This document shows positions 32,972 to 33,367 of a stretch of DNA of 53,818 nt, one piece after another. Location: positions 62,001 through 115,818 of the forward strand of contig QPGO01000214.1 of the NCBI GenBank assembly GCA_008632985.1. Direction: 5' to 3'. Each line of letters begins with the position of its first letter. The first letter of the stretch is position 1. Origin of the DNA: Psammoneis japonica. Its lineage: Eukaryota. Under the pieces are notes generated by a model. It had not been told where the DNA came from and made no database searches. It saw only the letters and a list, made by a program, of their open reading frames with translations. The translations under genes and the position numbers were made by a program.

Positions 32972-33367
32972 GACGCGTTCCAGCCCTAGGTGGGAGCTCG
33001 TAGTACTGACGTGTGACACAAATAATTTTTATCATCCGTCGTATGTTTCGCACGTACATTTCTACGTGTGATATTTTAAGAAAATTGTCCAGACTCGCTG
33101 TTTTGCGAAGCCCCAGACGTTTTATATAACGAACTTATAGAAACAATAATGCGCCAGTTACATTCTTCAATGTCTGAAGAATGTAACTGGCCAAGTAAAA
33201 AATAATGTGCTTCAATCATGGGCGAGTTTGTGCGTTCGCAAAATTGCCTCATTTTCTGTTGGCGATCATCGACATTTTAATTACCGTATAATTTTACTAC
33301 GGAGCTCGCACGTAGAATTCTACGGGCCCCATGTCACACGGATTCCCACCTACGTCTGGAACGCGTC
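32972..33367 (+). mobile_element. MITE copy 1 (396 bp; young, TpA intact)
   Basis: TIRs GACGCGTTCCAGnnnTAGGTGGGA / TCCCACCTAnnnCTGGAACGCGTC; flanking 4-bp duplication GACA/GACA. Confidence 0.92.

Follow-up and report, generated by a model that had tools for sequence, protein, structure and literature searches.

A TA-rich MITE inside a TA-erased repeat domain of the diatom Psammoneis japonica: probable late insertion after in-place mutation of TpA

Targeted mutation that destroys TpA dinucleotides in mobile DNA has so far been described in one preprint and one alga, the chlorarachniophyte Bigelowiella natans (Mettrop et al., bioRxiv 10.64898/2026.01.13.699255). In that preprint, two integrated viral regions, composed of giant-virus and virophage DNA, undergo de novo mutation of TpA to TpG or CpA; of the 231 mutations counted in them, 230 change A:T to G:C, every one of the 230 within a TpA, and they occurred in 11 of 15 lines. 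The signature appears during asexual growth in some of the lines but not in others, at a rate about 1000-fold above the base rate, and an ADAT2-like adenine deaminase is put forward as the agent as a hypothesis only. The figures given (211 mutations, 6,169 TpA sites and 3,132 generations) yield, by our calculation, about 1e-5 events per TpA per generation, which corresponds to a TpA half-life of about 6e4 generations, a value that serves as illustration only. Full-text literature searches, judged from their listings and from the openings of abstracts, returned no diatom report of TpA hypermutation, the B. natans preprint being the only such account, and no description of the transposable element family treated here.

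Repeat-induced point mutation (RIP), found in Neurospora and other ascomycetes, resembles the locus described below in that transitions at particular dinucleotides inactivate repeats or mobile elements where they lie, and in that domains of skewed composition, with sharp limits, come to stand next to normal genes. It converts CpA to TpA, so that TA and AT rise, whereas here TA is destroyed, GC is raised and CA and TG stand at 1.5-2.0 times expectation; the C to T change at CpA with an excess of TpA that marks RIP is absent from the locus. As to duplication, the trigger of RIP, 1.3-kb repeats have been erased here, yet an element of 396 bp in very high copy number is untouched, so mere repetition at such a length would seem insufficient.

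The window analysed, 53,818 nucleotides of contig QPGO01000214.1 (positions 62,001 to 115,818; assembly GCA_008632985.1), holds two N runs and falls into three parts. At 1-6476 lies a copia-type reverse transcriptase (Pfam RVT_2, E = 1.8e-12), borne by an ORF at 5193-6476, with an observed-to-expected ratio (O/E) of TA of 0.13-0.34; the ORF at 1-3024 has no Pfam match. A gene block follows from 6.7 to 26.6 kb, with Pfam matches to ADP-ribosyltransferase, CP12, hydrolase, amine oxidase and MIF4G/MA3 and a TA O/E of 0.43-0.83. An amine-oxidase ORF falls nearest to a protein cluster made up mostly of Bacillariophyta members (score 0.99), as suits a diatom. One host ORF of this unmutated block (10163-11167, + strand) matches ADPrib_exo_Tox (E = 6.7e-12) and ART (E = 3.3e-11). 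Directly downstream of the MIF4G/MA3 gene, within 26500-27200, the composition switches sharply, TA O/E falling from 0.34 at 26-27 kb to 0.03 at 27-28 kb. The remainder, 27000-53818, is a gene-free, TA-erased domain that contains all six copies of the element. Outside these copies it has 62 TA where 1565.5 are expected (O/E 0.04) and 667 CG where 1295.9 are expected (O/E 0.51). Kilobase by kilobase, TA O/E is 0.00-0.14, with exceptions at the kilobase holding copy 1 (0.38) and at 39-40 kb (0.22), while CG ranges over 0.15-0.96 and CA and TG over 1.46-2.04. Compared with Pfam, 33 ORFs from the domain yielded just three weak matches, of which one, at 33150-34178, is below the cut-off and two fall on tandem arrays.

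The domain resembles the affected regions of B. natans in that change is almost only A:T to G:C at TpA and gives TpG or CpA according to strand (here a TpA-restricted signature with CpG decay mixed in), and in that it is regional, sparing ordinary genes and leaving clusters poor in TpA and rich in CpA and TpG. The preprint likewise finds reverse transcriptase and DDE domains enriched among TpA-poor coding sequences. The two cases differ in host, a chlorarachniophyte there and a diatom (a stramenopile) here; in target, viral inserts there and transposon-derived domains and MITEs here; and in degree, with a Rho of 0.45 in the viral region there against near saturation here. CpG loss moreover accompanies TA loss at the present locus, where mutation is read from sequence and not in real time. 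The process matches the TpA hypermutation of B. natans (10.64898/2026.01.13.699255).

Within the erased domain, copy 1 of a MITE of subfamily A occupies 396 bp on the + strand at 32972-33367 with its TA and CG intact. It is flanked by the TSD GACA, read from the sequence at 32968-32971 and again at 33368-33371, and ends in TIRs at 32972-32995 (+) and 33344-33367 (-), inverted ends of about 23 bp in which 22 of 24 bases of the 5' arm pair with the reverse complement of the 3' arm. A central hairpin at 33153-33191 has 17 paired positions, at most one mismatch and a short loop. TIRs, a TSD of fixed length (4 bp), small size (389-396 bp), the apparent absence of coding capacity and the presence of many copies at unrelated sites identify the element as a MITE. 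One stop-to-stop frame that starts inside copy 1 (33150-34178) was compared with Pfam, and its sole match lies outside the element and below the cut-off. Copy 1 had no match in a phage collection; pattern scans of metagenome contigs with the degenerate 5' TIR and with the conserved 3' block gave 0 matches each; and the 700-bp flanks matched nothing else in the window, so no paralog of the insertion site was found there.

Copy 1 contains 29 TA where 32.1 are expected (O/E 0.90) and 28 CG where 18.2 are expected (O/E 1.54), and its CA and TG, at 1.01 and 1.02, are not depleted. The 2 kb to its left hold 3 TA (139.5 expected) and the 1.83 kb to its right 5 (131.6 expected). At the background rate the probability of at least 29 TA per 396 bp is 4e-29, and the richest other 396-bp window from 27000 onward has 12. 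The terminal TAs of copy 1 lie 15 and 16 bp inward from its ends and the closest external ones at 32814 and 33922; the TA island thus matches the extent of the element as tightly as the element's own sequence permits. A first-pass annotation of this DNA had described a TA-rich island whose limits coincide with the TIRs, and this is borne out, although the observation as a whole is only partly confirmed, for reasons given below. In read run X1, contigs of other copies leave copy 1 at exactly 32972 and 33367 for unlike DNA (agreement 0.47-0.48), which confirms the mobile unit.

The reads also show which form of the element is common. The locus is present in one sample only (three runs, as contigs; no RNA run was listed for it), which may be the assembly's own source, and the evidence on the family is conditional on at least 90% likeness to copy 1. 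Word depth in X1 is 31.7-41.2 in the flanks and sums to 9,335-214,148 over the element; contigs with at least 90% likeness to copy 1 number 1,357, of which 262 reach at least 99%. At the 29 TA sites of copy 1, another letter reaches at least 10% of depth only at 33005 (G, 27%) and 33204 (G, all). Since the TA-rich form dominates the depth of copy 1-like sequence in X1, it is the form that multiplies. From the family majority copy 1 has four private ordinary differences (33134, 33204, 33270 and 33330), and at most two candidate TA losses (33192 and 33209); TA makes up about half of the family depth at both of these sites. In the same run, a second contig differs by about 9% from the left flank at 32414-32565; its 14 differences are nearly all transitions and include adjacent CA-to-TG pairs at 32518-19 and 32521-22, which suggests a paralogous copy of a repeat with an erasure history of its own.

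The six copies in the window have flanks unlike each other. Copy 2 (35220-35615, - strand), an old, TA-erased member of subfamily A, is identical to copy 1 at 287 of 396 positions and has its interior in common with it. Copies 3 to 6 form a second subfamily, B, whose interior is unlike that of A; what the two subfamilies have in common is limited to about the first 110 and last 75 bases. Copy 3 (36556-36946, -) and copy 4 (37964-38352, +) are TA-erased; copy 5 (44897-45084, +) consists of the 5' 188 bp only, over which it is 87% identical to copy 4; and copy 6 (46153-46451, -), a close sister of copy 3, is truncated at its 3' side and retains the 5' 299 bp. All four full-length copies have a 4-bp TSD, each different (GACA, TGTG, ACAT and GCTG for copies 1 to 4), and TIR pairing in copies 2 to 4, counted by eye, extends over 17-20 of 24-25 positions. 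TA numbers 5 in copy 2 (26.8 expected, over 35225-35615), 7 in copy 3 (26.2 expected), 6 in copy 4 (26.5 expected), 4 in copy 6 and 1 in 114 bp of copy 5, the O/E of copies 2, 3, 4 and 6 being 0.14-0.27. Copies 2 to 6 thus all stand between copy 1 and the background; the earlier placing of copies 3 to 6 as intermediates between copies 1 and 2 fails, because counts of 7, 6, 1 and 4 face the 5 of copy 2.

The direction of change can be judged at the 12 TA sites of copy 1 that lie in the ends common to all copies. At five of these the other copies include both CA and TG, and at two TA is retained in most copies; at the remaining five the others are uniformly CA or TG and the polarity is ambiguous. 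The claim that TA was converted to CA or TG is therefore upheld at 7 of the 12 common sites. {CA,TG} differences between close paralogs likewise need an ancestor with TA or CG. At 33295, the loose-end consensus of runs X2 and X3 is the TA-rich counterpart of the copy 3 interior, that is, unmutated subfamily B; by eye it differs from copy 3 at 4 of 30 letters, each a T of TA that reads C in copy 3. The consensus does not show CA or TG as ancestral, since the read majority (at least 90% like copy 1) keeps TA, and 33204 is the site at which the family majority is TG and the TA of copy 1 is derived. Three-state sites, {CA,TG} paralog pairs and the abundance of the TA-rich form in reads together support TA as the ancestral and CA and TG as the derived states. 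The tyrosine content of pol, which had been cited for the same direction, is too weak to count: the reverse transcriptase ORF (5193-6476) has 1.4% Y against 2.0% in host ORFs, with C at 2.8% and H at 2.8% against 1.6% and 2.3%.

Copies 1 and 2 had been read in the first-pass annotation as the same sequence before and after rewriting, on the strength of seven pairs of short strings. All seven can be found in the two copies, in the same order and with an offset that stays at 5, but copy 2 is not a rewritten copy 1. Their 391-bp alignment has 107 mismatches, made up of 44 transversions, 33 other transitions, 22 changes of TA to TG or CA and 8 of CG to TG or CA, the last two classes counted in strict context; with 77 of the 107 differences of other kinds, the listed strings are a selection from conserved parts. 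Copy 2 is, on this alignment, a diverged relative of copy 1, and the two make a poor before-and-after pair. The 29 TA sites of copy 1 read TG at 14, CA at 7, TA at 3 and otherwise at 5 in copy 2, and its 28 CG sites are kept at 12 and read CA at 3 and TG at 3.

The central hairpin varies among the copies and deserves separate mention. Paired positions in its stem number 17 in copy 1, 15 in copy 4, 13 in copy 2, 9 in copy 3 and 6 in copy 6. The letters of the stem vary among copies and subfamilies, with pairing kept by changes on both arms, transversions included; in copies 3 and 6 the hairpin is broken by in-situ changes at CG and TA. This suggests a MITE that, while active, may be under selection for its central hairpin structure. 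Two of the TA differences between copies 1 and 2 sit in the compensated stem and may predate insertion.

Not copies 1 and 2 but copies 3 and 6 are the best natural experiment on timing in the window. Their flanks differ, marking independent insertions, and they differ at 27 of 299 sites, of which one is a transversion and 24 are steps among TA, CG, CA and TG, including 6 of {CA,TG}, 10 of CG against CA or TG and 2 of TA against CA or TG. The pair implies about 16 ancestral TA sites, of which about 10 were hit in copies 3 and 6 alike and 2 in just one of them; the other 4 escaped in both and lie in resistant or semi-resistant contexts. About 22 TA hits in 32 site-copies stand against 3 ordinary differences in 598 site-copies, from which TA erasure would have run at roughly 230 times the ordinary substitution rate, a ratio of wide error drawn from three events. 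In copy 2, the TA site of the TIRs changed in the same way along a single physical strand at either end, so that the two arms are no longer symmetrical.

A three-copy repeat of 1.3 kb gives a second view of the order of events. Its copies, R1 (41584-42856, +), R2 (46451-47527) and R3 (50456-51236), differ at {CA,TG} sites 9 times between R1 and R2 (in 1,077 bp), 26 times between R1 and R3 (in 780 bp) and 24 times between R2 and R3, and transitions account for 61 of 73 and 132 of 161 differences in the repeat pairs. R1 and R2 have most of their erased states in common and R3 was erased independently of them, a pattern that supports erasure both before and after the duplication of R1 and R2. That mutation follows insertion, as had been proposed, holds for the old copies, by the pattern of copies 3 and 6, and for these three repeats.

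The domain was erased in more than one stage, since the background is more erased than copies 2 to 6. TA O/E rises from 0.04 in the background to 0.20 in copies 2, 3, 4 and 6 pooled (Poisson P = 1e-9) and 0.90 in copy 1, and CG O/E from 0.51 to 0.91 in the old copies and 1.54 in copy 1. The suggestion that change accumulates with time or in episodes stands to the extent that the TA gradient and the three repeats both indicate more than one stage; the uneven activity reported from B. natans lines fits such a pattern. As for the sexual cycle, which the first-pass annotation named as a possible occasion of such episodes, the B. natans signature arises in asexual lines. Deamination of methylated CpG has in common with the locus the change of CG to TG or CA, which is frequent between old copies (10 sites between copies 3 and 6; 28, 35 and 16 in the three repeat pairs) and agrees with the CG level of the background, but it cannot account for the loss of TA and it is slower, copy 2 having kept 12 of the 28 CG and 3 of the 29 TA of copy 1. 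A tandem duplication at 34573-34858 and 34932-35217 (359-bp spacing, 98% identical) stops 3 bp short of copy 2; its six differences include three of CG against TG or CA and none that involves TA, so this duplication is younger than the TA erasure there.

Use of TA loss as an insertion clock, a further proposal of the first-pass annotation, survives only as an ordering, with the background first, then copies 2 to 6, then copy 1. Against a clock stand saturation, a rate that depends on context, and the failure of TA loss to track ordinary substitutions. The sensitive TA sites are saturated in every old copy. In copy 1, 4 ordinary differences go with 0-2 TA losses; in copies 3 and 6 together, about 22 TA hits go with only 3 ordinary differences. 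The two balances are unequal (Fisher P = 0.014), a comparison subject to the caveat that the private letters of copy 1 may derive from its source copy. Episodic or domain-dependent activity fits these figures better than a steady rate, and the locus limits TA loss as a dating tool. The earlier interpretation as a whole is partly supported.

The surviving TAs of the domain reveal the context dependence. TTAA accounts for 24 of 62, as against 32 of 823 in the gene region, and among survivors the TA is followed by A in 62% (21% in genes) and by T in 5% (27% in genes). Depletion of TAT is already visible (11%) in the copia element, where erasure has gone less far. TAA and TTAA are thus spared here; the main text of the B. 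natans preprint does not contain the words 'context', 'trinucleotide' or 'TTAA'. The stretch at 38891-39499 has an intermediate TA density (16 TA in 900 bp, O/E 0.24), mostly as TTAA, TTAG or CTAG; it may have been inserted later or may have been AT-rich from the outset.

The locus itself yields the direction of change, its timing in situ after insertion, the order of events and the sequence context, and the explanation that we consider probable is a late insertion of copy 1 into a domain already erased by an in-place mutator of TpA to TpG or CpA. Copy 1 would represent a very abundant, non-coding DNA transposon of about 390 bp (a MITE with a 4-bp TSD) that landed in an old, gene-free repeat domain from which about 96% of TpA and about half of CpG had already been lost. 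The putative mutator would act on chromosomal DNA in place, changing TpA to TpG or CpA (A:T to G:C) on either strand and site by site; it would prefer TAT, then TAC and TAG, largely spare TAA, and be directed to repeat or silent domains while leaving neighbouring genes alone, with ordinary CpG decay going on alongside at a slower pace. Copies 2 to 6 would have landed when the domain was partly erased and later have been erased themselves, and copy 1 would have arrived after erasure of the domain ceased, or too recently to be hit. By analogy with B. natans, the agent may be an enzyme that deaminates adenine to hypoxanthine in DNA, to be read as G at the next replication, possibly targeted by silent chromatin or small RNA and active in episodes. 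CA and TG outcomes form no strand runs along copy 2 or the repeat pairs (runs tests, P = 0.65-0.96), and the CA/TG skew per kilobase is mostly weak; with both strands affected and no runs, a processive single-strand mechanism gains no support.

Copy 1 need not be especially young if it was simply never a target. On this alternative the mutator seeks long repeats, or a chromatin state now absent from the domain, short MITEs are erased only as bystanders, and the TA content of copy 1 reports the activity of the domain and not age. The imbalance between ordinary and TA changes in copy 1 relative to copies 3 and 6 points this way, as do the intactness of copy 1 despite the very high copy number of its family and the region- and line-specific activity described in the B. 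natans preprint (10.64898/2026.01.13.699255). We nevertheless judge it unlikely: the private differences of copy 1 were possibly inherited from a rare source copy, copies of the same length and family in the same domain have been erased, so that the element has no protection of its own, and even a copy that escaped targeting must still have arrived after its flanks were erased.

Late insertion into a domain mutated in place also has to be weighed against a route through RNA, in which ADAR-type A-to-I editing of double-stranded transposon RNA would be fixed by reverse transcription. ADARs favour U before the edited A, according to the preprint (10.64898/2026.01.13.699255), and a TA-poor copia-like element does lie in the window. 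MITEs, however, move as DNA, yet erasure has reached copies 2 to 6, with outcomes that vary from copy to copy at the same sites, and their unrelated flanks along with them; the three dispersed 1.3-kb repeats, once duplicated, were erased independently of one another; and the whole 27-kb domain is affected, tandem arrays included. Differential erasure of MITEs at the same sites, with unrelated flanks, together with the tandem arrays, indicates that the change was made on the DNA in place, and we consider the RNA route very improbable.

Misplacement of a high-copy repeat into this locus during assembly might be suspected of so abundant an element, the more so as the junction contigs reach just 26 letters into copy 1, below a 31-letter bridging rule, and as the single sample with the locus may be the assembly's own data. 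We give this little credence, given a perfect 4-bp TSD placed exactly at the TIR ends, flank contigs that run into copy 1 without a difference and at flank depth (32.3 and 41.2), and a private letter of copy 1 (33330) at single-copy depth (38.6). No X1 contig joins the flanks without the element, although contigs cannot prove the absence of an empty site. A RIP-like origin, with CA and TG ancestral and the TAs of copy 1 gained by C to T change at CpA, could appeal to the five common sites that are TA in copy 1 and uniform elsewhere and to the truly derived TA at 33204, but is scarcely credible in view of the five sites with TA, CA and TG together, the two with TA in most copies, the undepleted CA and TG of copy 1, the same TAs in abundant copy 1-like copies, the {CA,TG} pairs of close paralogs and a flank TA content of 0.02-0.04 of expectation, which cannot be ancestral for once-functional DNA.

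The same near-saturated signature in a diatom genome would add a second major eukaryotic lineage, of large ecological weight, to the one in which a TpA-destroying mutator has been described, and it prompts the question whether an editing-type genome defence, opposite in direction to RIP, is widespread. To such a comparison the locus brings a direction, action in place after insertion that extends to elements never passing through RNA, more than one stage, and a rough rate. We offer, tentatively, the conjecture that diatoms possess an episodic, domain-aimed defence by adenine editing that reads 5'-TA[not A], that was off, or not aimed here, when copy 1 landed, and that was outrun by a MITE family with many unedited copies. 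If so, the TA states of MITEs across the genome should fall into discrete classes that date the episodes and not along a smooth clock.

Erasure has a further effect on the apparent coding content of the domain. All along 27000-53818, either strand has stop-to-stop frames of 150-438 aa, none with a credible Pfam match. Loss of TAA and TAG produces these long false ORFs in all frames, and gene callers would over-predict in TA-erased domains. A 23-bp tandem repeat forms long arrays at 41154-41767 and 42901-45000, within the erased domain; when translated, these arrays match an ice-binding beta-roll family spuriously and with low scores.
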